From NCBI RefSeq assembly GCF_010672695.1, contig NZ_JAAHGB010000033.1, positions 7,965 to 71,964 of the forward strand: DNA of 64,000 bases. The letters are read 5' to 3'. Source of the DNA: Okeania sp. SIO1H4 (lineage in GTDB: Bacteria > Cyanobacteriota > Cyanobacteriia > Cyanobacteriales > Microcoleaceae). A program made the translations under genes and the position numbers. The notes beneath the pieces were generated by a model. It was given only the letters and a program-made list of their open reading frames with translations, did no database searches and had not been told where the DNA came from. Shown here piece by piece: positions 4,511 to 52,676 of the stretch; position 1 is the stretch's first letter; each line of letters opens with the position of its first letter.

Positions 4511-4675
4511 AAAAGGCGATTAATAATTAATAATTCATAATTAATAATTGCCTCTTATTTTCAAGTAGAAATAATTATTGATGGTTTACTTCCCCTCCTG
4601 GGAGTTGCTATGGGAACATTGCATGCAACGTCCCTACTGCCACTCAAGAAGGAGTTTGAGTACCCATCCATTTTT

Positions 4676-4790
4676 TCCTTGCTTCCTTCTTCCTTGCTTC
4701 CTTCTTCTTTGCTTCCTTCTTCCTTCTTCCTTCTTCCTTCTGACTTCTTCCTTCTGACTTCTTTCTTCTTCCTTCAAATAAATGCTAGGA
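4676..4790. repeat. Heptanucleotide tandem repeat array (TTCCTTC / TTGCTTC variants)
   Basis: Visible direct tandem heptamers between the VOC gene and the TPR gene. Confidence 0.8.
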
Positions 4791-7773: not shown

Positions 7774-8317
7774 AGATAATTTACCTAAAACAACTGCTAT
7801 TAAATTCTCATAGAATAGTCTGAAAAACTATTCATTTTGGACATAATACGAATTTGATAAACGTTTGCTACAAATATCTAGGGGATTTTTTAGGAGTCAG
7901 GAGTCAGGAGGCACGGAAGGAAGAGAATTTAGAAAGATTTGGCAATGGCGCTGAGGATGGAACATTTTTTTATACCGAACCCGAGCGGATTTTATATAAA
8001 ATATTGCTTAAACCTTTAACCATATCATTTAAGTGAACTGAAAACAAGTCTAAACTTAGTGCTACTAATATCAGTTACCAACATCAAAAAATTAGGTAGT
8101 GCATAAGTTCTGAACTTAAGGAAATATATCTAGCGATCGCAGGACTTATACAATAGACATCTGGTGATCATCAAAAATAAAATCAATTATTGCATATAAA
8201 TTATCAATTATTTCCCCCTACTCCCTACTTCCTACTCCCTCTTTTCCGGAGATAACTAATATATGAGGTCTAAACACTAAATATATAAAACGTTATAGTT
8301 TTGATTGACTATATCAA

Positions 8318-11880: not shown

Positions 11881-11960
11881 TGAAGAAGGCAGAAGGCAGA
11901 AGGCAGAAGGCAGAAGGCAGAAGGCAGAAGGCAGAAGGCAGAAGGCAGAAGGCAGAAGGG
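11881..11960. repeat. (GAAGGCA)n heptamer array (about 11 units) followed by the GGGGTATTAAACCC core element (12016-12048)
   Basis: Read directly. The ORFs called across it (11815..12050) are repeat artefacts. Confidence 0.85.
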
Positions 11961-17218: not shown

Positions 17219-17720
17219 ATAAAATGACGGTTATTTAAGTTTTTATGGATAGATATAGAATCAGAAATACTGGGCGATCGCTCTGTTAAAATTATAGCGT
17301 TAGCGGAGCTTTGCGTCAGCAATCGCTCTATTTGCAATGCGCCATATATAGTGTCTTTCCCTAAGTCCTGACTATTTATCAACTCAAACATCAATTATTA
17401 TCCAAATATCTAGTATCAGAGCTCAAATATCCTAGGCGTTGGTGATGCGTGGTTATGATTGTGCTTGAATGGCAATTGTCTAACTATTAACTGAAAAACA
17501 TTTTATATTTGGCTAAATTTAGGTTTCATAGCTTGATTCACCAACGCCATATCCTACAATTAAAATGACGGTTATTTAAGTTTTTATGGATAGATATAGA
17601 ATCAAAAATAGTAGGTGATCGCTGACAAAAATCATAGCGTTAGCGGAGCTTTGCGTCAGCAATCGCTCTATTTACCATGCGCTATATATAGTGTCTTTGC
17701 GTAAGTCCTGATGTATTTAA
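17219..17720. repeat. Two direct copies (~160 bp each, 17219-17380 and 17563-17720) of a MITE-like unit. Each ends in ...AGCGTTAGCGGAGCTTTGCGTCAGCAATCGCTCTATTT...TATATATAGTGTCTTTGCGTAAGTCCTG
   Basis: Read directly. Family members are also at 33840-33960 (reverse orientation), 33985-34010, 35990-36060, 36210-36300, 31915-32010 and 46895-46925. Confidence 0.8.
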
Positions 17721-26378: not shown

Positions 26379-27479
26379 ATGCAAACACTTGGCAATGAAG
26401 AAAGCAGCACCATGTCTACAACTAACGACAGTGGAGTTTTCTGGACACCTGTTTGGCGATCGCTAGGCTGGTATGTTGAGGCCACTGAAGAAGAAGGTGC
26501 AGCTTTATTAGGAGGTAATATCAGGTTCAAAGACCTCTCTGGGCAATTACTAGGTGCCCATGTAGCCCATGCTGGTTTAATCATGCTGTGGGCAGGTGCC
26601 ATGACACTGTTTGAGCTATCTCAGTTTGACCCCAGCGTACCAATGTACGAGCAAAAACTAATATTACTACCTCATCTAGCAACATTAGGTATTGGTATCG
26701 AAGCAGGGGTACAAACAATCGACACCTATCCCTACTATGTCATCGGTATGCTGCATCTCATCAGTTCTGCTGTTTTGGGAGCAGGAGGTATCTACCATGC
26801 AGTTTTAGGGCCGAAACAGCTTGATGAGAAAGGTTTTGGCTACGACTGGGAAGATGGCAACAAGATGACTACTATTTTGGGTATTCATCTAGTGCTGTTG
26901 GGGGTGGGAGCATCTCTATTGGTCATTAAAGCAACGGTTTTAGGTGGTATTTACGATCCACTAATAGAACAAGTAAGGTTAATACAGCCTAATCTCGATC
27001 CCGTAAGAATTTTCGGTTATCTGTTTGGCTTTAGTCCTAATGGTTGGACAATTACTGGCATGGCTAGCGTAGATAATCTCGAAGATGTGGTCGGTGGTCA
27101 TGTCTGGGTGAGCCTACTCTGCACTGTTGGTGGTCTATTTCACATTATTTCCAAACCTACGGGTTGGGCAAAACAAATACTAATTTGGTCCGGAGAGGCT
27201 TACTTGTCTTACAGTTTAGGGGCACTTGCGATCGCAGGATTTAGCGTAGCTGTCTTTATCTCCACCAACGAAACTGTTTATCCTAGCGTGTTTTATAGTC
27301 CTATTGGCAGCGACTCTGTGCGAACTGCTCTTGCTACCGTTCATGCTGGATTAGGTTTCCTAGCTTTGCTCGGACATTTATGGCACGCTTACCGAGCGCG
27401 AGCTGCTACTCGTAAAGTATTTTATGGAACGTTCTTTGACTTTATGGCTAAGAATGTTACACCTATTACACCTGCTTGA
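26379..27479 (+). CDS. isiA: Chlorophyll-binding protein of the IsiA/CP43' (Pcb) family, copy 1
   Basis: Six CP43-like helices with the conserved motif [17 protein letters not shown], but no large CP43 lumenal loop E. Confidence 0.85.
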
Positions 27480-27670
27480 ATAGAAGTCAAAATCTAAGTT
27501 CATTGAAGAAGGAGACAGGAGACAGGAGACAGGAGGAAAATTACATGGGGATAGTCTTCGACAAGCCACTCCGCGTCTACGCTCCCCCAAGTAATGCGTG
27601 AACATCGCAAGTGACGGTGGGGTATTAAAGCCATAAAGAAAATGATAATTATATAAGGAGAACAATAGTA

Positions 27671-28699
27671 ATGACTGTCGTAACAGATGAGAATCTGCAA
27701 ATCCCATGGCGGGCAGGTAATGCTCGGCTTGTTAACCTATCTGGCAAGCTATTGGGCGCTCATGTAGCCCATGCTGGCTTAATTGTACTCTGGGCTGGAG
27801 CTATTACTTTGTTTGAAGTTGCCAACTTTGATTCCTCCCTACCAATGTACGAACAGGGCTTAATTGTACTGCCTAATCTAGCCCGCTTGGGATTTGGAGT
27901 TGGTGAAGGAGGTGTCATTGATACCTACCCCTACTTTGTGATTGGGGTACTGCATTTGATTAGTTCGGCGTTTTTAGGAGCAGGTGGTATATTCCACGCT
28001 CTCAGAGGTCCATCTAAACTAGAAGACAAATTTTCTTTCTTTGGCTATAGCTGGGATAATCCAGGTAAAATGACAACTATCCTGGGTATCCATCTAGTCT
28101 TATTAGGAATCGGAGCATTTTTACTTGTAGCAAAAGCGATTGCATTTGGAGGGTTATACGATCCAGTAGTTCAAAATTTACGAGTAATATCAAATCCCAC
28201 TCTAAATCCTATTACCATTTTCGGCTACCTATTTGGTACAGAAGGACGTTTCTGGCTGGCTGGTGTTAACTCTTTAGAAGATGTAGTAGGCGGTCACATT
28301 TGGATTGGTGCTATCTGCATTTTGGGTGGTATCTGGCATATTCGCACCGTACCCTTTGACTGGGCTAAAGGCTTATTTGTCTGGTCAGGAGAAGCATATT
28401 TGTCTTACAGTATTGGCGCAGTCAGCTTAATGGCATTTGTCGCAACATTGTTTGTGTCCGTTAACTCCCTGGTATTTCCCACAGAATTTTTCGGACCAAC
28501 TTTGACTCTGGTGTTCGATCGCTTTCCTGTGTTTGTTAGTACTGATGGAGCCTTGACTGCAAGAGTATGGTTGGCAAATGCTCACTTCTGGTTAGGATTT
28601 TTCTTCCTGCAAGGACATATATTCCACGCCCTCCGGGCAGCAGGTTATAGCTTCACCGAAGGCAGAGTAGTCACATTTACAAGAGGTCAAGTAAGTTAG
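27671..28699 (+). CDS. IsiA/CP43'-family chlorophyll-binding protein, copy 2
   Basis: [17 protein letters not shown] and a CP43-like helix pattern. 342 aa. Confidence 0.85.
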
Positions 28700-28701
28700 T
28701 T

Positions 28702-30267
28702 ATGACTGTAACTAAATCAAATCCATTGAGGTTTTTAGGCTTTTCAACAGATAATAATGTTGATGTTGCGAACTATGTTAGTGATTCCCAAGAACCTTAT
28801 TCTTGGTGGGCAGGTAATTTTCGCTTTGTTAACTTGTCTGGAAAATTATTGGGAGCGCACATTGCTCATGCAGGGTTGATCGTACTCTGGACTGGAGCAA
28901 TGACTCTGTTTGAGCTATCAAAATTCGATCCTAGTCTACCCATGTACGACCAAGGACTGATTTTGCTGCCCCACATGGCGACTCTGGGTATAGGGGTTGG
29001 CGCAAATGGTGAAATTATTGATACTTATCCCTACTTTGCTATTGGTGTTATCCATCTCGTTAGTTCAGCAATTCTAGGCGCTGGTGGCATTTTCCATGCC
29101 GTGCTTGGACCTGACAAACTTGATGAAAAGGGATTTGGCTATCAGTGGAATGATGGCAAGAAAATGACTACTATCCTTGGTATTCATCTACTGCTACTGG
29201 GGATGGGAGCATTTTTGCTAGTAGCCAAAGCTATGTATTTTGATGGTTTGTATGACCCGGCGATCGCCAATGTGCGACTGATTACTGAACCCACTCTCAA
29301 CCCACAGACTATCTTCGGTTACCTCGTCGGTATCACCCCTGATGGCTGGACGTTGAAGGGTATGGCTGCTGTCAACTCTTTAGAAGATGTAATAGGCGGT
29401 CACATTTGGATTGGTAGTATCTGTATTCTGGGTGGTCTCTGGCATATTAATACTGCTCCTACAAAATGGGCTAAGGGTCTTTTTGTCTGGTCTGGAGAAG
29501 CATATCTTGCTTATAGTCAGGCTGCTCTAGCTTACATGGGCTTTTTCGCTGCCTACTTTGTCTGGGTGAATGATACAGTCTATCCTTCAGTATTTTATGG
29601 TCCTGTAGGTATGACTAATGTTGATGGTACAATTACTCCTCGTACCTGGTTGATGTTGTTCCAACTCATCTTTGCCTGTCTGCTACTGGCAGGTCACTTT
29701 TGGCATGGTCTCAGAGCTAGAGCGATCGCCAGTGGATTTGTCTTCAGTAATATGAAGTTCAATCCCGGTGCCCTCTATGGAGACACTCAGTTTAATAACG
29801 AATCTCTAGTGACTGGTATTGTACAGCCTTTCCAGAACAATCCTCAATTGGGTAATTTGGCAACCCCAATTAATTCCAGTCAGCTTACCATCACTTGGGT
29901 TAAGAACTTGCCAATTTACCGCAATGGTTTATCTCCTATTGCACGGGGTCTAGAAATTGGCATGGCTCATGGCTACCTATTATTAGGGCCTTTTCTCAAG
30001 CTCGGACCATTGCGTAACACCGACCAAGCTCTTCTGGCTGGAGGTGGTAGTGCATCTGGCTTAGTAGTGATTTTAAGTATCTGTCTGTTTGTTTATGGGG
30101 CGGTAGTGTTTCAAGGTTCTAGAGAACCAAGAGGCGTTTTACCGGAGAACCTACAAACTTATCAGGAATGGAGTTTGTTTACCTCTGGTTTTCTCATTGG
30201 AGGACTAGGCGGTGTAGTTTTTGCCTGCTTTATCCTTATAGAAATCGGGCGAGCGGGAATTTTGTAA
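28702..30267 (+). CDS. IsiA/CP43'-PsaL fusion protein (chlorophyll-binding domain + C-terminal PsaL-like domain)
   Basis: N-terminal 340 aa are CP43'-like. The C-terminal segment [38 protein letters not shown] plus two TM helices matches PSI subunit PsaL. Confidence 0.85.
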
Positions 30268-31905: not shown

Positions 31906-32446
31906 TATCAATAATCGGGACTTACGCAAAATATGAAATCATACACCATCTGTAGTGAAAAATTGTACTTAACCTCTACTATATGTGGTATTTATGCGTA
32001 AGTCCTGTAATAAATGTAACATTATGACAAACATCACAAAAACTTACATATCTACTTCACTCGATCAACACCAAAAAATCACGGTTGGTTGTACCATTAA
32101 TCACTACCAAATCAGGAAAAAGAGTGGATGATTAAAATATAGAATTTAAGATTAATCTTAATGCTTCAAATTAACTTACTTCCCGGTGCAATCAACGAAA
32201 TTATGGCTTCTGCTGCCAAAAGTGGCTTTCTCACAAAATTAGACTGCTATGGCCTCATGGCTGCTGTATTAGACGATTCTCTAAGCACAGAAGATCGTTC
32301 TACTGTTAAGCGACTTTCATATTTTGTACTCAGAGGATGGGTACGAGTAGAGTAGACATAGAGTTGGCGATCGATACTTTGTTTAAATGTTATGCCTCAA
32401 CAAATTCATCAGGAAATGCTTACCTTCTTCCTTCTTCCTTCTTTTC

Positions 32447-33809: not shown

Positions 33810-33951
33810 CTTGACTATGTTATTTTAAACTTGAACAGGACTTACGCAAAGACACTATATATAGCGTTTACCAATTTAGGCGATTGCTGACGCAAAGCTC
33901 CGCTAACGCTTAAAAAATCAAGTGCGATCGCCTCAAGATTTTGGGCATTTT

Positions 33952-34164
33952 TCAAACAAGAGTAAAAACACTTAATATAGTGTCCTTGCGTAAGTCCTGA
34001 TTAAAATACATTTTAAGACATAGTTGTTTAACTTCAGGGTGATATGCTTTGGGTTTAGGAGATTCAACAAATTGATGTCCACAGTCGTGACAACGATAAG
34101 ATTGTTTTTGCCGACGAAAACCATTTTTCTTATAACGAGAAGATTGGCATTTGGGACAGTACAT
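33952..34164 (-). mobile_element. IS1-family InsA-like transposase N-terminal fragment (Zn finger), truncated by a MITE-like insertion
   Basis: MYCPKCQSSRYKKNGFRRQKQSYRCHDCGHQF gives a CxxC...CxxC zinc finger like InsA. The C-terminal 15 aa are translated from the CAGGACTTACGCAAGGACACTATA element at 33985-34010. Confidence 0.45.
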
Positions 34165-34406: not shown

Positions 34407-35804
34407 ATGGCTCAGTCTCTAAACGATCACCTTCACCTTTCTATCATTGCATGTGGTCACGCTGGTTCCGGTAAGTCCACCACCCTATGACACTTGATCT
34501 ACAAATGCGGCTCGATTACCAAGCGTCAGATATCTACGTTTGAGAAAGAGTCTCTTGAAATGGGAAAGGGGTCTTCCAAGTATGCCTGGGTCATGGATAG
34601 AACTCCGGAGGAACGCGAGCGAGGTATGACCCTAGAGGTGAACTACTGGAGAATAAAAACGGAGAAATATTTCTGCCATCTCATTGATGTTCCCCATGCC
34701 ATTGATCAAGTGATTAGTGCGGCCTCCCAAGCTGATGCTGCGATACTCATGGTTGATGCCAAAAAAGGAAGCTTTGAAGCTGGCTATGCTATGGACGGAC
34801 AAACTCGCCAACACGCTTTCATACTCTATTGCCTTGGTGTCAAGCAGCTTATTGTTGCTGTCAATCAGATGGATGCTGTTAACTATGACCAAGAGCGCTA
34901 CAACGAGATTGTTCTAGAAATGAGTGAACTTCTCAAAAAAATTGGCTACAATCCGAAAGCAATTAGGTTTATTCCTATCTCTGGATGGACAGGTGAGAAC
35001 TTCTTGGAACCAGCAAGTAATATGAGTTGGTATCAAGGTACTCATATTGAGATGATGAACAGGTACGGGAATTTGGTACGAGCTTCTTTTAAAACCCTCT
35101 TCGAGGCTATTAATACCTTTCTTCTACCTTCAGATGACTCTGGACCCATGCGTACCTGTGTCTCTAGAGTATTTCAACCCGGGGACGACCATAACCTACA
35201 GATTGGTAATGGTCGATTTTCATTTATGGGACATGTTGAACGTGGAATCCTTAAGCCGGGAGATGAAGTTGTCTTTTACCCCACTCACACCAACTCCAAC
35301 CCTTGCACAGCTAGAATTACCAATCTAGAGATTAGCCATGAGGAGACCACCTCCGCTAAGAAGGGTAACATTGTCAATTTTATTCTCGATGGTATTTCCC
35401 ATGCTAACTCGCCCCATGTTGGTGATGTCATGGTTCATAAATCCGACTCCTCTATTGGCAGGATTCGGAGCTTCCAAGCTCAGGTTATTGTGCAATCTCA
35501 TTGTGGTTCGATTGAAGTTGGCTACCAGACCACAGTCCTTATCAATAGTGCCCAGGTTGTAGTCCGCCTCACTGCTATCGAGCGTCAACTAGATAGAAGG
35601 GGTCGCACCATCGCTGAGAACCCCGCTAAGATTGAGGAAGGAGATGGTGCCATTGTTACATTTGAAGTCCAAGAACCTTTAACGGCAGAGCCATTCAAGG
35701 ATTGTTCAGGACTGGGTCGGTTGATTCTGATGGACGGTAATAAGAATTCTGAGGGCGTTGCCAATTTAATAGTTGGTGTCATCCGAGAGGTTGAACGTGT
35801 TTGA
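34407..35804 (+). pseudogene. Archaeal/eukaryotic-type elongation factor 1-alpha (aEF1A/eEF1A)-like gene with in-frame TGA at 34488-34490 and degenerate G3/G4 motifs
   Basis: [74 protein letters not shown]... is colinear over the full length (domains I-III) with eEF1A/aEF1A. Anchors include [43 protein letters not shown] and SGW. It is not EF-Tu-like. DxPGH is changed to DVPHA and NKxD to NQMD. Confidence 0.6.
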
Positions 35805-36550
35805 CCTACCCATTGACATCCTCTCCCGCTAAATCGAAGATTATAGCGGGAGATTCCCAAACATCGCTATTTGGGTTCCGGGTTTAAGTAGCAATTGTGC
35901 AAGAAACCCCGTTAAGGTATTTGCGATCGCGCTCTCCAATTAAACCTCTCTGAGAAAAAACCCTGAGACCCTTGATTTATCGTTATAAATTTCTGCACCA
36001 AATAAACTACAGTTTATTAACAGGACTTACGCAAGGACACTATATATGGTGCTTAGCGTTCAGACTATCTCTATATTGGCACTGCTTACTAGGTTCCTCT
36101 GAGCGATCGCCTGAACTCCAAAACATAACTAATAGATATCTCCGAAAAAGAATCTGAAATCCCTGTGTATAGGTAAAAATATAATTTCTAGAGATGTTTA
36201 ATGGAATATTCACTAACATAGGCGATCGCACTTGATTTTTTAAGCGACCGCCTAAATTGGTAAACTCTATATATAGTGTCTTTGCGTAAGTCCTGTTGAA
36301 TATAATCTTGACAGGATTTATCGCAGAAGGAACACAGAGTAATATAATTCCCTTGATCATCATACAATGCGTAGGGGCGAATGGCCATTTGTGCTCCGCA
36401 AAGCTCCGAATGGCGCCCCTACAATATAGACTCTTAATCTTAAACAATGCTGAATAACACTGATGCGACCAGATTTGAGATCAAACCCTTGTAGGAATGT
36501 TCCATGGAACGCCCCTACATTCTTTTTCGGAAGGAAAGCAAGTTGAAAAC

Positions 36551-39633: not shown

Positions 39634-39652
39634 GAGATGGGGGGATGGGGTG

Positions 39653-39745
39653 ATGGGGTAATGGGGTGATGGGGTGATGGGGTGATGGGGTGATGGGGTG
39701 ATGGGGTGATGGGGGGATGGGGGGATGGGGTGATGGGGTGAAAAA
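39653..39745. repeat. (GGGGTGA)n heptamer array (~13 units), followed at 39811-39855 by a (CCCCTACT)n array
   Basis: Read directly. G4-capable on the + strand. Minus-strand ORF 39602..39790 is an artefact of it. Confidence 0.9.
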
Positions 39746-41300: not shown

Positions 41301-42338
41301 GTGTTGGTAGTGCCTAATTTATCATTTGGCAAAATTGCAAAGTTTTCGGTTTCTATCAGAATAGGAATTTTTATTTTAACATTATTTCTGGGTTGGATAC
41401 CACTAGCAGCACCAATATATTTTTTTGGGCGAGATGCAAATTTAGCGAGTATATTGGCGATCGCTCTATTATATATAGAGTTTATTATTTTAGTCCAGTT
41501 TTGGGGAAAGAAAGTTTATCAACAACCACACCTACTACGTCACTACGGTTTAGAAATAAGTAGGGTCAACTTTCAGAATTTTTTTCAAGGTTTAGGAATA
41601 GGTTTAGTTAGTCTGTTTGGTTTTTTTATTTTAGAAACGTTTCTGGGATGGGTAATATGGCAGTCACCTTCAGCAAAGTTACCTCAATTTATTCTGGAAG
41701 GTTTATTGGTATCTGTGGGTATTGGTTTTGCTGAGGAGTTACTATTTCGAGGGTGGTTATTGGATGAGTTGGAGCGAGACTACAAACCAAAAGTAGCTTT
41801 GTGGGTAAGTAGTATTGTGTATGCCTTACTACACTTTATTAAACCAGTTGAGGAAATTTTGCGGATTTGGTTTCAGTTTCCTGGTTTGGTGTTGTTAGGT
41901 TTAATCTTTGTTTGGGCAAAACGTGGATCAGTTGAAGAAGGAAGAAGGAAGAAGGAAGAAGGAAGAAGGCATCCCCCCTTGCCCCCCTTTGAAAGGAAGA
42001 AGGAAGAAGGCATCCCCCCTTGCCCCCCTTTGAAAGGAAGAAGGAAGAAGTGGATGGTGACTCAAAACCCAACTAATTATCAACACCGTGTAGATAGCGG
42101 GGTATTAAACCCAAAAGAAAAAGATAAATTGACTTATTATCAACAACAATTATTGGGTTTGCCTATTGGTATTCATGCTGGTTTTGTTTGGGGTTATTAC
42201 ATTATTAATGTGGGTGGTTTAGTTAAGTATTCTAGTGTAGTTGGAGAGTGGATAGTTGGGATAAATGGTAATCCTTTAGCAGGTGTAATGGGGTGGTTTT
42301 TTTTAGGAGCGATCGCTTTGTTTATTCAGCGAAAGTGA
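41301..42338 (+). CDS. CPBP-family (CAAX-protease-like) intramembrane metalloprotease carrying an in-frame ~175-nt repeat-element insertion
   Basis: Motif 1 EELLFRGWL, motif 2 YALLHF and motif 3 region HAGFVWGYYIIN are present. Between motifs 2 and 3 (about 41930-42135) lie heptamers (GAAGGAA), duplicated GGCATCCCCCCTTGCCCCCCTTTGAAAG units and the GGGGTATTAAACCC core. The frame is preserved. Confidence 0.6.
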   Translation: MLVVPNLSFGKIAKFSVSIRIGIFILTLFLGWIPLAAPIYFFGRDANLASILAIALLYIEFIILVQFWGKKVYQQPHLLRHYGLEISRVNFQNFFQGLGIGLVSLFGFFILETFLGWVIWQSPSAKLPQFILEGLLVSVGIGFAEELLFRGWLLDELERDYKPKVALWVSSIVYALLHFIKPVEEILRIWFQFPGLVLLGLIFVWAKRGSVEEGRRKKEEGRRHPPLPPFERKKEEGIPPCPPLKGRRKKWMVTQNPTNYQHRVDSGVLNPKEKDKLTYYQQQLLGLPIGIHAGFVWGYYIINVGGLVKYSSVVGEWIVGINGNPLAGVMGWFFLGAIALFIQRK

Positions 42339-42567
42339 ATTGGTATAACCTAGAGGTAGTTATAGTCATTTAACTTTAGATTGAGACAAAGCTTTCTTGC
42401 TATGAGGGAGTTTCAGACGAAAAAACGTCTCATTTTTAAGTTAAACTACTATATATCATGTCTGGATAATAGCGTTCTGATTCAATATCAAATTGCTAAT
42501 AGCTATAATGCTTATAGAACAAGTTTTTTGGGGAATTTATAATTTATAAAGCGACAAGTCTAATATT

Positions 42568-43947
42568 TTATACAGTTGCAACAGAGGTAGGTTTTGTTTG
42601 TGACAGTATGCGTTTAGCTTTCATCAGCATTTTTACTCCTCCCTTGGGTCCTAAAGTTACTCCTCGACGTTGGGGTTTTACAGGTTGATTTTCTGCTAAT
42701 TCCATCTCGAAATTAGATAATAGAGTTGCCAATACCAAGCGCATCTCAAAATCTGCTAGTGCCATTCCCAAACAGCGACGACTGCCACCTCCAAATGGCA
42801 AATATTCATAGGGAGAAAACTTCTTCTCCAAAAATCGCTCTGGCTTAAACTTTTTCGGTTCTGGGTACAAATCTTCTCGTTGGTGAGTCAAATAAATAGA
42901 ACCACGAATTGTTGTATCTGCTTCCAAGTGATAACCCTGCAACTCAACAGGTTGTTTTGTCCGACGAGGAAATGTCATAACTACTACTGGATATATTCGT
43001 AAGGTTTCCTGACAAACTGCTGTGAGATAGGGTAAACGGAATATTGTCATGGGTTCAGCATCTATTTCCAGAGTTGTCAACTCTTCGATCAACTTTTGAT
43101 ACACTTGTGGTTGTTTATGAACCCAATAAACTGCCCAAGCTAGAGCTGTTGCAGTGGTTTCGTGACCAGCCAATAACAATGTCATCAACTCATCCCGAAT
43201 TTCTTGGTCTGTCATACCTTGACCTTCTTCATCTTGTGCTAATAGCATTAAGGTCAAGATATCAGTACGATTTGGATCTAGTTGAGAGCGGCGAGTGGCA
43301 ATTTCTGTATATAGGAGTTCATTAAGTTTTTGTTGTTGACGCTGATACTTACCCCAAGGACTCCAAGGGCCTAAATCCTTTTGCAACCAGGGAAAAAATA
43401 ATAAACTAGCTCGGAGTGGAGAAGCTGTGAGTTCAAGAAAATCTGTCAACATTGACCTAATTTGTGATAAGCGGGGGCTATCATATAGACCAAAAACAGT
43501 TTGGAGTATCACCTGCATCGTAATTTCTTGCATCAGTTTACGGGCAATAAATGTTTTACTCACTGTTAAGTTGCTGGCTACTTCTTTGGTGATGTTACAG
43601 ATTAAATCACCATAGTTCCGCATTCTGTTGCCATGAAAGGGAGGCATTAATAATTTGCGTTCTCGACGGTGGCGATCACCTTCTAAGCAAGAAATTGAGT
43701 ATTCCCCAAACACTGATTGTAAAAGTTTATTAGCAGGAACTTCATACTCATTATTATCCTTTGTCAATACCTCCTGCAAAGCTTGCGGACTGCTGAGGAT
43801 CACAGCTTTCTCAGCAGGAGCAGGAGTTATCATGGTAAAAATATCTCCATACTTCTTGGCATAAAATTCAAGAGTATTGAGTGGAGCGAGAACCAATTGC
43901 AGTCTCTGAAAGAGGGGTGGTGTTTTTGAGCCTTTGATTAATTTCAT
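42568..43947 (-). CDS. Cytochrome P450
   Basis: Heme-binding FGGGSRRCLGMALA, ETLR and PERF motifs. 459 aa. Confidence 0.85.
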   Translation of the reverse strand: MKLIKGSKTPPLFQRLQLVLAPLNTLEFYAKKYGDIFTMITPAPAEKAVILSSPQALQEVLTKDNNEYEVPANKLLQSVFGEYSISCLEGDRHRRERKLLMPPFHGNRMRNYGDLICNITKEVASNLTVSKTFIARKLMQEITMQVILQTVFGLYDSPRLSQIRSMLTDFLELTASPLRASLLFFPWLQKDLGPWSPWGKYQRQQQKLNELLYTEIATRRSQLDPNRTDILTLMLLAQDEEGQGMTDQEIRDELMTLLLAGHETTATALAWAVYWVHKQPQVYQKLIEELTTLEIDAEPMTIFRLPYLTAVCQETLRIYPVVVMTFPRRTKQPVELQGYHLEADTTIRGSIYLTHQREDLYPEPKKFKPERFLEKKFSPYEYLPFGGGSRRCLGMALADFEMRLVLATLLSNFEMELAENQPVKPQRRGVTLGPKGGVKMLMKAKRILSQTKPTSVATV

Positions 43948-44199
43948 ATTAGATTTGTGAATTTTTAGACTGTTTAATGTTAGAAGTTAACAAGAGCATT
44001 TTATCGGTTTTTTTGTCTCAGATTTAATACCCTAGTGTTATACAAATTTTTATGTTGGCGACAACCGTTTGCGTAGCATTCCGTAGGAAAACAATTAATT
44101 ATTAATTATTACCTCTCTTTGGCCAAGTTCTTTACATTGGACAAGTTTTTTCGCACTTTCAGGAGTTTTATCCCCTCAATCCATTTTTTTAATCTTTTT

Positions 44200-44350
44200 T
44201 TACCAAATAATTAAGGTTTAAAGCCTCTCCTTTGAAGGAGAAACAAGCGGTCCTCTTCGGAGCTTCCCGTAGGGTGGGATGGCGCAATTCGGAGCAGCTC
44301 TGATAAGAGCGGGTATCCTCACCATATCCATGATACCAAGAGAAGAAAAA
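44200..44350. repeat. Dispersed element (core CGCCATCCCACCCTACGGGAAGCTCCGAAGAGGACCGCTTG on minus strand) with an inverted copy at 56330-56480 and a related segment at 17040-17110
   Basis: Compared by eye: about 40 of 44 core positions are identical. It is flanked by TTAATTATTAATTATTA runs. Confidence 0.6.
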
Positions 44351-44476
44351 ATTTTCATGATTAGTCAATCCTCTTCTTTTCAAGGAGAGGTAATTGTTAA
44401 TTATTAATTATTAATTGTTGAAAGATACCCTCTAGTAATTAGTATTAGAAGGTAGAGAGTTGAAGCATCATACAAT

Positions 44477-45421
44477 TCAAATATCTTGTCTATTTCTGGC
44501 ATCTAAAAATTTTAATTGTTGATACAACATTCCAATTTTATCTAGCTGAATACCTGCTGCACCTGCCATTCGTAAGGGGTTGCCAATAATACTTTCTATT
44601 TCTAAAGGTTGTCGTCGCTCATAATCAATTTTCATGCTAGTTAAATAAGGGTTTAATTTGTCAGTATGGTCTAACATATTTTGAATATAACTATCTGGAA
44701 CTTGGCACTTACAACTTTTTGCACCCTCCAATACTTCCTGCATTATTTCTGTGATTAAGTTTCTAGTATGAGTGTCTCCCATCATTTCATCAGTTCGAGC
44801 ATCTAGAATTACTGACAAGCTGTTATAAGGAATATTCCAAACTAATTTTTTCCATCTTTCTTGAAATAAATCTTCAGTCAAATTAACTTGTATTCCAGCA
44901 CTTTCAAAATCCTGGGAAATTTCACGCATTTTATTAGTAATACTAGCAGGTTGATAATTTGTGGCATATTTTCCGATTCTAATCAAACCATAATCTACAT
45001 GGCGAATATGACCGTGACCTATTTTATTAGAAGCAATATTAGATACTCCTCCAATCACTCTTTCTTCACCAAAAATTTTGGCTATTTCAGGTTCTGCACC
45101 CAATCCATTTTGTAAGAGTAAGACAACGTTATTTTCTTGGCACAAAGGTGGGAGTAATTCTGGTAATAAATAGTTTTGCGTTGTTTTTAATGCTACGAGA
45201 ATTACATCACATTTTGGCATTTTATTAGTATTGTTATAGGCGTTAATTTGAGGGAGGGTAAAGTCGCCATTTTTGGATTCTATGATTAAGCCATTTTTGA
45301 GAACGTGCTGATAATCACTACGCAGTAAAAAATGAACTTCTAATCCTGCTTTTTGTAGTTTTGCACCGTAAAAACCTCCTAGTGCGCCACTGCCAATAAT
45401 CGCGTAAGTATTTTTTGACAT
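44477..45421 (-). CDS. panE: 2-dehydropantoate 2-reductase (ketopantoate reductase)
   Basis: N-terminal Rossmann IIGSGALGGFYGAKL and the ApbA C-terminal domain. 314 aa. Confidence 0.8.
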   Translation of the reverse strand: MSKNTYAIIGSGALGGFYGAKLQKAGLEVHFLLRSDYQHVLKNGLIIESKNGDFTLPQINAYNNTNKMPKCDVILVALKTTQNYLLPELLPPLCQENNVVLLLQNGLGAEPEIAKIFGEERVIGGVSNIASNKIGHGHIRHVDYGLIRIGKYATNYQPASITNKMREISQDFESAGIQVNLTEDLFQERWKKLVWNIPYNSLSVILDARTDEMMGDTHTRNLITEIMQEVLEGAKSCKCQVPDSYIQNMLDHTDKLNPYLTSMKIDYERRQPLEIESIIGNPLRMAGAAGIQLDKIGMLYQQLKFLDARNRQDI

Positions 45422-46092
45422 TTTATTGAACTTAAATTCGACTCTGTTTCTATTTTATTGTAAGCATTTCCTACGGAATGCTGCGCAAACAGCTATTAGC
45501 TGTCAGCTCTCAACAACAAGACTCTCTCATATAGGACAGTGTTTAAATTAATATAGACTTTAAGGGCAAGGGAGCTAACTTTTGCAGTAAGACAATTAAT
45601 AAAGCTTTTATCGTAAACTAAAAGCAATAGCTAATAGTTATGACTGACCGTTGAATGCTTCAATAAAAGTTTTATTTAAACCCTGTTATTAAGAGCGAAG
45701 TATTAAATTTTTGTACTTCATATACTTGCATTTTGCTGTATTAAACTCAGCTCTATAATTATTTTGTCTGTTCAAATTTTTCAACTTTAATTTTGTTACA
45801 TGAATATTCTTTCCATTATCCACTTTGAAATTTGTCCTAAAGCAAATCTTCCTGCCAATGCTAGGAAAATATAATACAGTAGATTCCAATTTAATGAGGT
45901 ACACCAGTTGTGGGCAAGATGCCCGCACTACAAACATTTAATTGTTAATCTCTGTACTTCTTATGGGAGGAATTTGCTGTAATTTATATTTATCACTCCA
46001 GCTTCAGTTTCTAGAATGTTCTGAACAAAGAAAGATAGAAAAAAATAGCAGGCAAAAACAGTACTAAAACTTTAGTTTTAGTGTTTATAAAA

Positions 46093-46183
46093 GTTATAGC
46101 AGTCGAAGGAAAGGTTAGGACAGATAAAAAATTTAAAACTCAGACAAAGCAATATTTTTCTTTATTCCCTCTTCCTTCTACTA
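46093..46183. repeat. Copy 2 of the 3'-end-associated element (see 2332-2433), just downstream of the minus-strand thioesterase stop
   Basis: TTATAGCAGTCGAAGGAAAGGTTAGGACAGATAAAAAATTTAAAACTCAGACAAAGCAATATTTTTC + CCTCTTCCTTC. Confidence 0.7.
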
Positions 46184-46208
46184 TGCACCAATTCCTGAAA
46201 ATAATGCT

Positions 46209-46649
46209 CTACTTATATTCATTGTTAATTTTTGAATAACTAGGAAAACTCAATAACCATTTCCTCATTTCATCAGATAATTTTTGCCTACTTCTACTTT
46301 GAGGATGAATACAAACGTGCTTCGTAATAGCTCTCGCCACCCACTTATCTCCTGCCTCTTTTAAAAAGACTTGATAGAAAATTTCAAACTCATCATCTCC
46401 CCAATTTTTAGGCATTAATTCAATAGTTAACTCATCTCCACAAAACATCGGGCGACGAAAATCAACATTAGCATGAATAATCGGAATAGCCATTTCTTGA
46501 TTACTAAAAAAGACTTTCAGATTAATACCAAATTCTCCTAAAGATGCCTCATAAGCTTCATGGCACATTGCTAAAACATTAGCAAAATAAACCACTCCAG
46601 CAGCATCGGTATCTTGAAAATGAACTATTCTTGTATAGTAAAAAGACAT
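46209..46649 (-). CDS. Hotdog-fold acyl-CoA thioesterase (4HBT family; DHNA-CoA thioesterase-like)
   Basis: RIVHFQDTDAAGVVYFANVLAMCHEAYE... resembles, from memory, the cyanobacterial 1,4-dihydroxy-2-naphthoyl-CoA hydrolase of phylloquinone synthesis. Confidence 0.55.
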   Translation of the reverse strand: MSFYYTRIVHFQDTDAAGVVYFANVLAMCHEAYEASLGEFGINLKVFFSNQEMAIPIIHANVDFRRPMFCGDELTIELMPKNWGDDEFEIFYQVFLKEAGDKWVARAITKHVCIHPQSRSRQKLSDEMRKWLLSFPSYSKINNEYK

Positions 46650-46759
46650 TTATAAAGATAGGTTTAATAGTTAAGTTGAAGAAAGTTTTAGGTGGAAGCT
46701 TTTAGGTTCAATTGAAGATTTAATTCCAAGCAATTTATAGATACTGTGAAAACGGTCAT

Positions 46760-47600
46760 ATTTTCTATACCTATAACCTACAACCTGCCATCTACCACTT
46801 AAGGAAGGATAAGGACAATAAATCATATATTCAGGAATTAGGGATTTTTGAGTTCTAAACGCTACATATCTGTAACGTTATAGTTTTTGTTTCCTATATA
46901 TAGTGTCTTTACCTAAATTCTGATAATCTGACACCTACCACTAAAGCAAAGGTAGGGATAATAAATCATATATTTAAGAATTAGGGATTTTTAATTTCTA
47001 AACACTACATATCTATAACGTTATAGTTTTTGTTCTCTATATATAGTTTCTTTACCTAAATAGAGTAGGAACAATTAATCATAATATTCAGGAATTAGGG
47101 ATTTTTGAGTTCTAAACACTACATATCTGTAACGTTATAGTTTTTGTTTCCTATATATAGTGTCTTTACCTAAATATCGATCGCCTAACACCTACCACTA
47201 AAGCAAAGGTAGGGATAATAAATCATATATTTAAGAATTAGGGATTTTTAAGTTCTAAACGCTACATATCTGTAACGTTATAGTTTTTGCTCTCTATATA
47301 TAGTGTACTTGCCTAAATTTTGATAATCTAACACCTACCACTAAAGCAAAGGTAGGGATAATAAATCATATATTTAAGAATTAGGGATTTTTAAGTTCTA
47401 AACGCTACATATCTGTAACGTTATAGTTTTTGCTCTCTATATATAGTGTACTTGCCTAAATTTTGATAATCTAACACCTACCACTAAAGCAAAGGTAGGG
47501 ATAATAAATCATATATTTAAGAATTAAGGATTTTTGAGTTCTAAACACTACAGATATGTAACGTTATAGTTTTTGCTCACTATATATAGTAGTTGAAGCA
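46760..47600. repeat. Tandem array of 6 units of ~141 bp (ACCTACCACTAAAGCAAAGGTAGGGATAATAAATCATATATTTAAGAATTAGGGATTTTTAAGTTCTAAACGCTACATATCTGTAACGTTATAGTTTTTGCTCTCTATATATAGTG...), with units 47194-47335 and 47336-47477 identical
   Basis: Direct reading. Whole units repeat with no unique spacers. The last unit grades into copy 3 of the 3'-end element (47581-47685). Confidence 0.85.
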
Positions 47601-47756
47601 AAGGGTGCGGACATATCAAAAGCTTAAAACTCAGACAACGCAAGATTTTTCAGTCCTTAGCTCCTTCCTTCTTTCTTTTCTGAACAATGAACAATACTAA
47701 ATTTGATTGTAGTAATTGTTCATTGAACATTCATCAGGACTAATTTTGTAATTAAA

Positions 47757-48203
47757 TTAACCCTTATTTTTAATCATCATTACATCAATAATATTAGTAG
47801 CTACTGCTTCAGAAATTTCCAAAGCATTATATAACTCATTCAAAAGTTGTTCCTCCTCTTCAGCAAGGTCTCCATCTACTAAAACCAAGTCTGTACTAAC
47901 AGCAAAAACTGTTTCCCTTAACTCCTTTGGAAGTTTAGCAACTGCAGCATCAAACAAAGGCTTAATTTCTTGATTTTTAATCATATCGAGAAGACGGTCT
48001 TGCATTTCTGTTTTACGTTCTTTTGGATAATCACTAAACAGTTGCATACGAGAGAAAATATTATTAATACCTTGAGATTCACTCTTAGTAATAACACCAT
48101 CAGCAGCAACAGCAATTAAAGCGATCGCTGCAAAAGCTTCTGCCGGTTCTAATTGAATATCAGTAGCTTGTATTGTTGTTGTTCCTTGATCGAAAAGACC
48201 CAT
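47757..48203 (-). CDS. TerB-like (tellurite-resistance TerB domain) protein
   Basis: 148 aa, all-helical, AIALIAVAADGVITKSE...LLLNELYNALEIS pattern typical of the TerB fold. Confidence 0.45.
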   Translation of the reverse strand: MGLFDQGTTTIQATDIQLEPAEAFAAIALIAVAADGVITKSESQGINNIFSRMQLFSDYPKERKTEMQDRLLDMIKNQEIKPLFDAAVAKLPKELRETVFAVSTDLVLVDGDLAEEEEQLLNELYNALEISEAVATNIIDVMMIKNKG

Positions 48204-51039: not shown

Positions 51040-52676
51040 TTATGGGCCAGCTTGAGCGATCGCCCGAATTGTCTCAGCCCCCAAAGCCTCCACTTTTTGC
51101 TGAAACTCAGTAGCAGTAATTTCAGCCATTTGCCTTGCCTTCTCAATCTCTAAATTATTCAGTGTCTGCTGATGGGCTAACTCAGTCTCCTGACGCGCCC
51201 TCAACTGAGCCATCTCAGCCTCATGGCGAATCCGTGCTGCTTCTACTTCCTGCTGCGCCAAATTCACCGCCAACTGGCCTTGAAAAGGAGATAACATATA
51301 AGCTTGAGGTCCATTGACTAATTTTAGTTCCCCACTTTGAACATCCCGTACATATATACCTTCATTTTTGTCTAGGGGAATAGCCTGAAGTTTTTCTAAT
51401 ACTTCTAATTCCACTGGGGGAATATAATCTCTTGGCCCAGTAATCATCCATAAATCTCCTGGTTGCCGAGTAATAACGTTTGCTCCTGTTCCCTCGGTGA
51501 AAGTTTCCTCAACTCTGATTAGGAGTGCTTCTTGTTCACCAAGAATATAGACCTTTTTAATTCCTGTTTCTAAATCTTCTCCTGGGTGCAAAAAGAAAGA
51601 TGTTCTGCCCTGACGCACTTCTTTCATACCCCACTGCGGTTTACCATCTGCATCTATGGGATTAGTTACTATGCACCATTCGCGATCGCTTAAAGTAGTG
51701 ATTTTGACTTCTCCCACTACTTCTTCATAAACGTCGGGAATATGAATTTCAGCATCTGCAAAAGTAACTAACTATTCATATCCCGCTTTGCGTTGCTGAC
51801 CAAAAATATCAGTAAAAGTCCGTTTTGCTTTTAGATGTAGTGCTTGACGTTCGGTTAATACATAGGCATCAATAGTATCGACAATTTCTTCATCTACTCC
51901 AGGCAAATAAGCACCTTCTTCCCTGACCAACCATTATTCCCCAGTTCTACGTCTGTTACCTTGACGATCTATACAATTTTGTCGTGCCAGCAGTCGTAAG
52001 GCTTGGTTAGGTTTAATTATTTTAGCTATAACTGTGACTACCACTTCAACTTCTACCCTGGGAGTGTAAGTTCCTGGCCCCTCAAATAACCATTCATCCC
52101 CTGTCGTACGAGTGACAGTTTGAGACTCTCCTGCAACGATAACTGTATCAGTAAAATCTCGTATTGCTTTGAGACGTAGAGTTTGGTTTGTGTCAATTAC
52201 TTGTAGTTGAGTTACATCTTCTTCGAGTATTTCTCCTGGATATAGTGGGAAAGGGTCTTGAGCAAAGCGAATTTCCAGATCGCCATATTTGAGTCTAATT
52301 TAACCATACTCATCGGCCACAAGTTGATCTGAACTATAGCAATGTGCGCTGGCATATTTACACATTATTTTTTGTACACCTTTTCTAAAATGCACTTTGA
52401 ACTGGGCCTTGTAAATACCTGAGCGCTCATTGCTATATTTCTTAGTACAGGGTTAGCTGCTACACAATAATGGCGAGGTGGAACTACAATTGTCAGTTGT
52501 GGTTGTCAGACTAACCTTTCTGCATCTCCAAGGGTAATGGTTTGAGGGCCTATTTCTAGTCTGATAACACCAGTGTTATTGTCAAGAACATGAATATACT
52601 GTTGTGGCTTCAGGAGAATTATACCATTGTTCTCTATTGTAATTGGATATTCTGTGGTACTTTTTATTTTACTCAT
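51040..52676 (-). pseudogene. Major vault protein (MVP)-like gene, decayed by nonsense codons, frameshifts and a large internal deletion. The intact C-terminal ORF 51040..51717 has two MVP repeats joined directly to the end of the cap-helix.
   Basis: Translations across 51718-52676 give [107 protein letters not shown] and GYE*LVTFADAE. These match human MVP ([90 protein letters not shown]). Stops replace conserved E/W, and the shoulder and cap domains are mostly missing. Confidence 0.8.

Follow-up and report, generated by a model that had tools for sequence, protein, structure and literature searches.

Between a thioesterase-like gene and a TerB-family gene of the filamentous cyanobacterium Okeania sp. 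SIO1H4 lies an array of tandem repeats, located in a 64,000-nucleotide stretch of contig NZ_JAAHGB010000033.1 (this whole stretch is hereafter called the window, and coordinates refer to it). The array is very likely a minisatellite, also called a variable number tandem repeat (VNTR), that was seeded by a transposable element of the miniature inverted-repeat type (MITE) and that differs in copy number among genomes. The notion is that, in a common ancestor of the Okeania species sampled, a ~91-bp MITE of the IS701/ISPlag1 type would have lain in the interval separating TerB from the thioesterase gene. Subsequently, the MITE and ~52 bp of local flank, including a CCTACC/GGTAGG hairpin, would have been duplicated in tandem. 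Expansion, contraction, and homogenization would then have followed via unequal homologous recombination and/or replication slippage, and the palindromes of the MITE may aid amplification via template switching. The array is probably neutral.

The existence of six tandem units between the two genes had been recognized in a preliminary description made from the letters of the window, and Tandem Repeats Finder (TRF), six core-probe matches, and Pfam matches for both genes bear this out. Specifically, TRF places it at 46785-47590 and reports periods of 143, 114, and 257 bp, scoring 435-885. Two core probes, 25 and 28 nt long, each have six matches, exclusively on the plus strand, with zero expected in shuffled sequences. 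The unit anchors at 46836, 46979, 47093, 47236, 47379, and 47522 are separated by 143, 114, 143, 143, and 143 bp; the period is thus 143 bp and not the ~141 bp first given. Units 4 and 5 (47193-47335 and 47336-47478) are identical, as originally observed, and a 199-nt identity run exists at lag 143. Unit 3 is short (114 bp) because of a 29-bp deletion, evident in the unit alignment, that takes out the CCTACC/GGTAGG hairpin; this deletion is what had been described as a ~10-bp indel. The unit start, the CCTACC...GGTAGG inverted repeat, and the CTATATATAGT motif quoted in the preliminary description are all present. The array is composed of the following features, in which TIR denotes terminal inverted repeat:

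46785-47591, plus strand: the whole tandem array, six head-to-tail units of 143, 143, 114, 143, and 143 bp plus a truncated last unit, defined by TRF, core probes, and unit alignment.
46768-46780, plus strand: a degenerate right-TIR-like remnant, TACCTATAACCTA, directly upstream of unit 1, marking where the array has eroded on its left side; other Okeania arrays have this flank conserved.
46832-46922, plus strand: MITE part of unit 1, CAGGAATTAGGGA ... CTGTAACGTTATAGTTTTT ... CTATATATAGTGTCTTTACCTAAATTCTG (nhmmer E=4.7e-24; ends 18/21 and 25/30 against canonical).
46975-47061, plus strand: MITE part of unit 2 (nhmmer E=3.8e-19); the 29-bp deletion after its right end, placed by alignment, removes the next spacer hairpin.
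47089-47179, plus strand: MITE part of unit 3 (nhmmer E=6.4e-24).
47232-47322, plus strand: MITE part of unit 4 (nhmmer E=1.4e-21), equal to unit 5 in the register of the preliminary description by the identity check.
47375-47465, plus strand: MITE part of unit 5 (nhmmer E=1.4e-21).
47518-47591, plus strand: MITE part of unit 6 (nhmmer E=2.2e-18), cut off inside the right TIR after CTATATATAGT, with its hairpin loop inverted from CATATCTG to CAGATATG.
46934-46956, plus strand: spacer hairpin CCTACC-ACTAAAGCAAA-GGTAGG, also at 47191-47213, 47334-47356, 47477-47499, and, in degenerate form, at 46791-46813.
46870-46888, plus strand: MITE-internal palindrome and T run, CTGTAACGTTATAG-TTTTT, also at 47013-47031, 47127-47145, 47270-47288, 47413-47431, and 47556-47574.

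The origin of the units emerges from comparison with a dispersed family. A search for the invariant core GTTCTA-N14-20-AACGTTATAGTTTTT, run on a single genome from each bacterial and archaeal species, returned 32 loci, 28 of them cyanobacterial (Okeania spp., Dapis spp., Microcoleaceae, and other metagenome-assembled genomes [MAGs]) and four of them chance matches in unrelated taxa. Most of the cyanobacterial loci harbor a single 90-101-bp element, CAGGACTTACGCA-TTTTTGAGTTCTAAACACTACATATTTATAACGTTATAGTTTTTGAAC...CTATATATAGTGTCTCTGCGTAAGTCCTG. The dispersed copies, all noncoding and intergenic, are bounded by the TIRs CAGGACTTACGCA and TGCGTAAGTCCTG, and their 5-bp flanks are identical in 16 of 28 cases and differ by at most one mismatch in 21 of 28, revealing target-site duplications. 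This dispersed element is a MITE. Okeania sp. SIO3I5 alone possesses seven MITE loci, and a metagenome scan for the MITE core added seven more single copies and three chance matches, with no other array of this type.

A hidden Markov model (HMM) built exclusively from the dispersed copies matches all six units in the window, TIR regions included (nhmmer E 2e-18 to 5e-24). Likewise, the unit ends TCAGGAATTAGGGATTTTTGA and CTATATATAGTGTCTTTACCTAAATTCTGA, which lie beyond the probe-defined core, agree with the canonical MITE ends at 18 of 21 and 25 of 30 positions. Thus, each 143-bp unit consists of a diverged MITE copy of ~91 bp and a local spacer of ~52 bp. The CCTACC/GGTAGG hairpin belongs to the spacer and lies outside the MITE, and in other genomes the spacer is found at this locus only. 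The motif CTATATATAGTG, proposed earlier as a unit end shared with a dispersed MITE-like family, is indeed shared with that family; it is not an end, however, and forms the inner part of the right TIR, which continues as GTCTTTACCTAAATTCTG. Unlike independent insertions, the units have one homologous spacer and no individual target-site duplications; the copies therefore arose by tandem duplication and not by transposition. Because their TIRs have diverged and target-site duplications of their own are absent, the array copies are presumably no longer mobile. The proposal that the array is a satellite generated by a MITE is, in sum, strongly supported by unit cores that are copies of a dispersed element with TIRs and 5-bp target-site duplications.

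IS701 elements are expected to generate target-site duplications of 4-5 bp. Longer MITE relatives in the window (17682-17710, 33836-33999, and 36021-36295) carry a full 29-bp TIR, CAGGACTTACGCAAAGACACTATATATAG, that is identical at 26 of 29 positions to the published TIR, CAGGACTTACGCAA...CTATATATAG, of ISPlag1, an IS701-group element of Planktothrix agardhii (Christiansen et al. 2008, PMC2464740). From this TIR identity with a published element and from the size of the target-site duplications, the MITE in the array appears to be of the IS701/ISPlag1 type. ISPlag1-type MITEs and remnants are likewise short, noncoding, and intergenic, and they are tied to deletions and rearrangements in filamentous cyanobacteria (PMC2464740). 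In contrast to them, the Okeania element measures ~91-101 bp, has the core TTTTTGAGTTCTAAACACTACATAT-TATAACGTTATAG-TTTTT, and has at its left end no more than 13 bp of the TIR; furthermore, the copies in the window are not dispersed but tandem with flanking DNA, and no transposase partner was found in the fetched sequence. Among surveyed prokaryotes, Okeania reportedly ranks first in MITE diversity (2024 MITE survey), so a MITE-derived repeat in this genus is unsurprising.

Other remnants or relatives of the MITE superfamily reside in the window at 8252-8314, 17342-17370, 17682-17710, and 31916-32007. The core of the array units recurs in the copy at 8252-8314 (nhmmer E=1.3e-9), and the TIR at 17342-17370 displays the TTAGGGA variant present at the left end of the array. 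The two MITEs at 33836-33999 and 36021-36295, both with the full ISPlag1-type TIR of 29 bp, bracket ~2 kb containing an open reading frame (ORF) for an EF-Tu-like GTPase (34494-35804). Their 5-bp flanks are reciprocal (TTGAA/ATTAA and ATTAA/TTGAA), and the 2460-bp block thus has TTGAA on both outer sides, which suggests composite-transposon-like movement or recombination between MITE copies.

The array is not a peculiarity of one genome. It is present at the orthologous TerB-thioesterase locus in at least eight Okeania assemblies, with 3 to ~12 units, and, as noted above, the MITE core occurs at 28 cyanobacterial loci. The array loci, designated here by L numbers, are L012, L018, L023, L025 plus L029, L030 plus L032, and L033; L001, L002, L004, and L005 were fetched by synteny. 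All arrays that contain the hairpin spacer and the ATAAATCATATATT segment map between orthologs of TerB and the thioesterase, and a metagenome scan for the spacer/MITE junction produced no match. Confinement of the spacer to this locus indicates that it is co-amplified flank and not part of a larger mobile element. Copy number varies widely: L002 and L004 have three full units and a partial one; L001, SIO2C2, and SIO1I7 have five; the window has six; SIO2C9 has nine; and KiyG1 has ~12, with L025 and L029 abutting. L003 (GCA_003838225.1) has zero units, and its near-identical relatives (GCA_010672745.1) bear the array. Specifically, a clean 728-bp deletion has eliminated the array and left an intergenic region of 125 bp, and the L003 TerB and DUF815 proteins are identical to those of L002. 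The syntenic region in L006-L008 (Hydrocoleum sp. according to the protein source, Dapis sp. according to the GTDB title) lacks the array. The absence from L006-L008 combined with the loss in L003 implies that the array arose within the Okeania lineage and can be lost. Given that one Okeania assembly lost it cleanly, the array presumably has no required function.

The units evolve in concert while the edges stay stable, the pattern that unequal crossing-over is expected to produce. Mean unit identity within a genome is 0.84-0.95 (a single SIO2C2 pair, 0.75), and mean identity between genomes is 0.75-0.84 for most pairs, with KiyG1 versus SIO3B5 at 0.90. The nearest neighbor of most units is a unit of the same array. 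The window and SIO2C9 have their first units in common and in the same order, including the 114-bp unit, and their TerB-proximal expansions differ. The array thus exhibits both properties that define minisatellites and VNTRs, head-to-tail copy-number polymorphism and concerted evolution. The idea of a recombination hotspot, put forward in the preliminary description, holds in a descriptive sense: copy number is 0, 3, 5, 5, 5, 6, 9, or ~12, and partial units, nested MITE insertions, a loop inversion, and the 728-bp deletion accompany this variation. Small elements of other kinds also sit within array units: L005 (Okeania sp. SIO2C2) harbors a ~100-bp element with the TIR AGTCATTCTG/CAGAATGACT inside an array unit, at a TA of the TATATA tract of the MITE, and the array of L023 (SIO2B3) contains a nested insert of ~430 bp bounded by AGGGTTTGCTGA/TCAGCAAACCCT.

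Tandem amplification of this MITE has occurred elsewhere. The same element with unrelated flanks is tandem at three other loci: L019 of Okeania sp. SIO3I5 (177 bp x 4.2), L015 of a Microcoleaceae MAG (135 bp x 2.1), and L024 of Dapis (252 bp x 2.4). In several genomes, junctions of partial units sit at the internal palindrome CTATAACGTTATAG. Moreover, the hairpin loop and its closing bases are exactly inverted (CATATCTG to CAGATATG) in unit 6 of the window (47556-47563) and in four SIO2C9 units (units 5-8 of L033). The palindrome junctions and the loop inversion would fit template switching at the hairpin. We speculate that the central 14-bp palindrome of the MITE may be an intrinsic seed of tandem amplification, and arrays at four independent loci would fit this idea.

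We note that short tandem duplications also exist outside the MITE arrays. L006 and L007, which encode the same TerB protein, differ in their array-less TerB-thioesterase region by a ~150-bp tandem duplication, and other short tandem duplications are present too; intergenic tandem duplication may be common in this clade generally. Heptamer and octamer tandem repeats occur across the window (for example, at 4675-4775, 11884-11959, 39636-39741, and 41952-42050). Examples include AGAAGGC x 10.9, GATGGGGT x 13.2, and one 41-bp x 2.4 repeat, all of which resemble the short tandem repeats of filamentous cyanobacteria.

Several observations weigh against a neutral, MITE-seeded minisatellite. An autonomous partner, sought as an IS-length TIR pair enclosing a transposase and via the ISPlag1 C1 transposase motif, was not found in the ~400 kb of fetched sequence. 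That L001 has one unit fewer than the window could stem from collapse of the two identical units during assembly, and two assemblies break inside the array (L012 and L030/L032). Persistence of the array at one locus across species whose DUF815 proteins are 85-87% identical is compatible with weak selection or with slow neutral turnover. The spacer segment ATAAATCAT, which is not MITE sequence, is nearly invariant over 27 units, an invariance that concerted evolution might explain. Finally, every unit contains a sigma-70-like match (TAAACR or TAGAGA, 17 nt, TATAGT) beside a weak hairpin and a T5 run.

That last observation underlies the proposals in which the array is transcribed. There is a slim chance that the MITE contributes an outward promoter (TAAACA or TAGACA, 17 nt, TATAGT) overlapping a weak hairpin-U5 stop and that amplification thereby created tandem, unit-length small RNA (sRNA) genes antisense to the TerB-thioesterase unit. 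A tandem sRNA gene array had been suggested in the preliminary description, and we consider it very unlikely. In such an array, every unit would be transcribed separately, with the MITE-borne promoter firing on the plus strand and transcription stopping at the CUGUAACGUUAUAG-UUUUU hairpin of the next unit, yielding transcripts of ~135-140 nt, comparable to NsiR1 of Nostocales or to the repeat-derived noncoding RNAs (ncRNAs) of Trichodesmium. Promoter-like hexamers with 17-nt spacing are indeed present in every unit, the array persists across species, and in Trichodesmium, the sister genus, transcription of a tandem repeat array is very strong (PMC4143802). The hexamers match sigma-70 at 9 of 12 positions in three of the six units, and the other units have '-35' matches of 4/6 or 3/6 with TATAGT. 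However, the array region contains six sigma-70-like sites, compared with 8.3 +/- 3.0 expected in shuffles, and a terminator scan of the region found no terminator-like site. The -35-like hexamer differs among species, the hairpin has only five A-U-rich pairs, and the array is deleted in one Okeania assembly.

The orientation of dispersed copies offers a further test. An ABC-transporter ATPase gene is preceded, ~105 bp upstream and in the same orientation, by a related MITE copy with a near-consensus promoter-like TAGACA-17-TATAGT (L009, 3190-3300), and the same locus is occupied in three Okeania species (L009, L010, and L017), a point in favor of transcribed units; this copy may be a donated promoter. 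Overall, 20 MITE loci compared with their neighboring ORFs exhibit no consistent orientation bias, and this absence of preference means that neither a terminator nor a promoter role of the MITE gains support.

RNA structure likewise provides no support for an sRNA. Rfam 15 has no relevant match for the array, either at the gathering threshold across the whole window or at E <= 10 for 46600-47800, in which only chance-level hits appear. The preliminary description had proposed folding one unit. On neither strand do whole units fold better than their shuffles (z of +0.65 and -0.04); the best value, z = -2.5, belongs to a 76-nt minus-strand segment. Comparison of 27 distinct units from eight genomes with RNAalifold gave a consensus of -0.43 kcal/mol and zero compensatory pairs. 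Across the two obvious hairpins, the paired fraction of cells is 76.5%, no different from the mean of the shuffles, and one double change exists in 396 cells. By these sequence criteria, namely no Rfam match, no covarying or conserved structure, promoters at or below chance, and no terminator, the suggestion of an expressed sRNA array gains no support.

An alternative function, which we regard as quite improbable, is that the array acts in cis within the TerB-thioesterase unit. In this case, read-through RNA from the minus strand would carry a 9-bp hairpin, AACGUUACA-GAUA-UGUAGCGUU, every 143 nt, and these hairpins could serve to stabilize the mRNA, to punctuate it, or to insulate the promoter of the thioesterase gene, after the fashion of repetitive extragenic palindromes and bacterial interspersed mosaic elements (REP/BIME). 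Both flanking genes are on the minus strand, and the 76-nt segment described above is on that strand. Furthermore, the internal hairpin pairs better on the minus strand (91.7%) than on the plus strand (71.7%), where G-U pairs of the minus strand become mismatches. However, the overlapping palindrome shows the opposite, with 97.9% pairing on the plus strand and 87.3% on the minus strand, so the strand evidence conflicts. No compensatory changes occur, variants in other species disrupt the lower stem, copy number varies freely, and in L003 a mere 125 bp, without an array, separates the two genes.

A CRISPR-like or other repeat-spacer defense array, or an assembly artifact, is scarcely credible and is refuted by the unit alignment and by independent assemblies: although the units are regularly spaced and each has a segment able to form a hairpin, what lies between the MITE cores is homologous from unit to unit and not unique, the rejection of CRISPR in the preliminary description was correct, no cas gene is among the neighbors (TerB, DUF815, thioesterase, and ApbA), and at least eight independent assemblies carry the array with consistent flanks. 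Further candidates were set aside. Small-protein coding was dropped, since a period of 143 bp is not divisible by 3 and the units are not spanned by any ORF. For NtcA, LexA, and Fur boxes and for iterons or a replication origin, reading of the sequence revealed no matching motif; no motif scan was made.

With the MITE-seeded minisatellite as the preferred interpretation, comparison with known systems becomes instructive. Okeania is not heterocystous, and to our knowledge the heterocyst-specific TCCGGA promoter motif is absent from the array. In heterocystous cyanobacteria, NsiR1 forms a tandem sRNA array that lies upstream of hetF (Ionescu et al. 2010, as summarized in PMC6596454). Its likeness to the Okeania array is limited to an intergenic tandem repeat in a filamentous cyanobacterium; by contrast, the Okeania units are MITE copies with no conserved structure. 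The Rfam scans of the array gave no match to an sRNA family; whether Rfam includes an NsiR1 model was not checked. In Trichodesmium erythraeum, a tandem array of seven repeats of 736-973 bp yields the most abundant ncRNAs, and its authors suspect the involvement of mobile elements (Pfreundt et al. 2014, PMC4143802). That array belongs to a close relative of Okeania and is similarly long, intergenic, and in tandem, with local sequence duplicated inside its repeat unit. However, its units are five to seven times longer, and its transcription is demonstrated. T. erythraeum has no record among the core-probe matches, and no direct sequence comparison was made.

REPs are G+C-rich palindromes of 20-40 bp that are mobilized by REP-associated tyrosine transposases (RAYTs) and alternate in orientation. 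Like the enterobacterial REP/BIME elements, the Okeania repeats are palindromic, extragenic, and clustered between genes; unlike them, the units are 143 bp long, A+T-rich, and in one orientation, and they possess the TIR and target-site duplication hallmarks of a DDE-transposon MITE. Satellites derived from MITEs are known in eukaryotes. Like transposon-derived satellites and bacterial VNTRs, the array has units in which a transposable element is joined to flanking sequence, is amplified head to tail, evolves in concert, and changes rapidly in copy number. In the one bacterial case found, that of Porphyromonas gingivalis, a minisatellite resides inside a MITE (PMC4596501), the reverse of the Okeania arrangement. 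Thus, by origin the array belongs with the IS701-group MITEs, and by behavior it belongs with minisatellites and transposon-derived satellites.

The preliminary description had the array merge into an element at the 3' end of a gene. The last unit in fact ends within itself at 47590/47591; 47592-47690 is unique flank, and an inverted repeat near the TerB stop codon comes after it. The flanking features are the following:

46209-46649, minus strand: 4HBT_2 thioesterase-like protein, 146 aa (Pfam PF13279, E=1.8e-20).
47592-47680, plus strand: right flank, unique and unrepeated, conserved in most Okeania arrays.
47681-47733, no strand assigned: imperfect inverted repeat GAACAATGAACAAT ... ATTGTTCATTGAAC, directly 3' of the TerB stop codon, read from the sequence and kept in the array-less assembly too.
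47757-48203, minus strand: TerB-family protein, 148 aa (Pfam PF05099, E=3.4e-7), 99% identical to an Okeania TerB protein.

An exact-sequence look-up with the TerB protein of the window gave no record. A contig of assembly GCA_010672645.1 matches window positions 42209-47447 at 99.9%; this match and the TerB identity show the window to be chromosomal DNA of Okeania, which is marine and related to Trichodesmium. Next to the array locus, an ORF on the minus strand (51040-51717) encodes Major Vault Protein repeat domains (Pfam Vault, Vault_2, and Vault_4), and it adjoins the locus also in the Okeania assemblies L002-L004. Cumulative GC skew (window 42000-46000) has its maximum near 42-44 kb and falls steadily thereafter; the peak may be a mere change of gene orientation. 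Farther away, three tandem ORFs of 366, 342, and 521 aa (26379-30267) each have a strong Rfam match to the IsrR antisense RNA (119-131 bits), at 26847-27021, 28052-28229, and 29146-29323 on the minus strand, which indicates three adjacent isiA/CP43'-like genes.

Here, a puzzling array that had prompted the question of an sRNA cluster acquires a concrete origin as a transposon-derived minisatellite. Were the unit nonetheless transcribed, the locus would be a clear instance of a tandem sRNA cluster descended from a MITE, although no test result points there. In practical terms, assemblies built from short reads are likely to collapse or break at this locus, and it could be used as a marker for typing Okeania strains. 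More broadly, it provides an example, from a MITE-rich cyanobacterial genus, of a MITE and its flank becoming a VNTR that has lasted at one locus across species.

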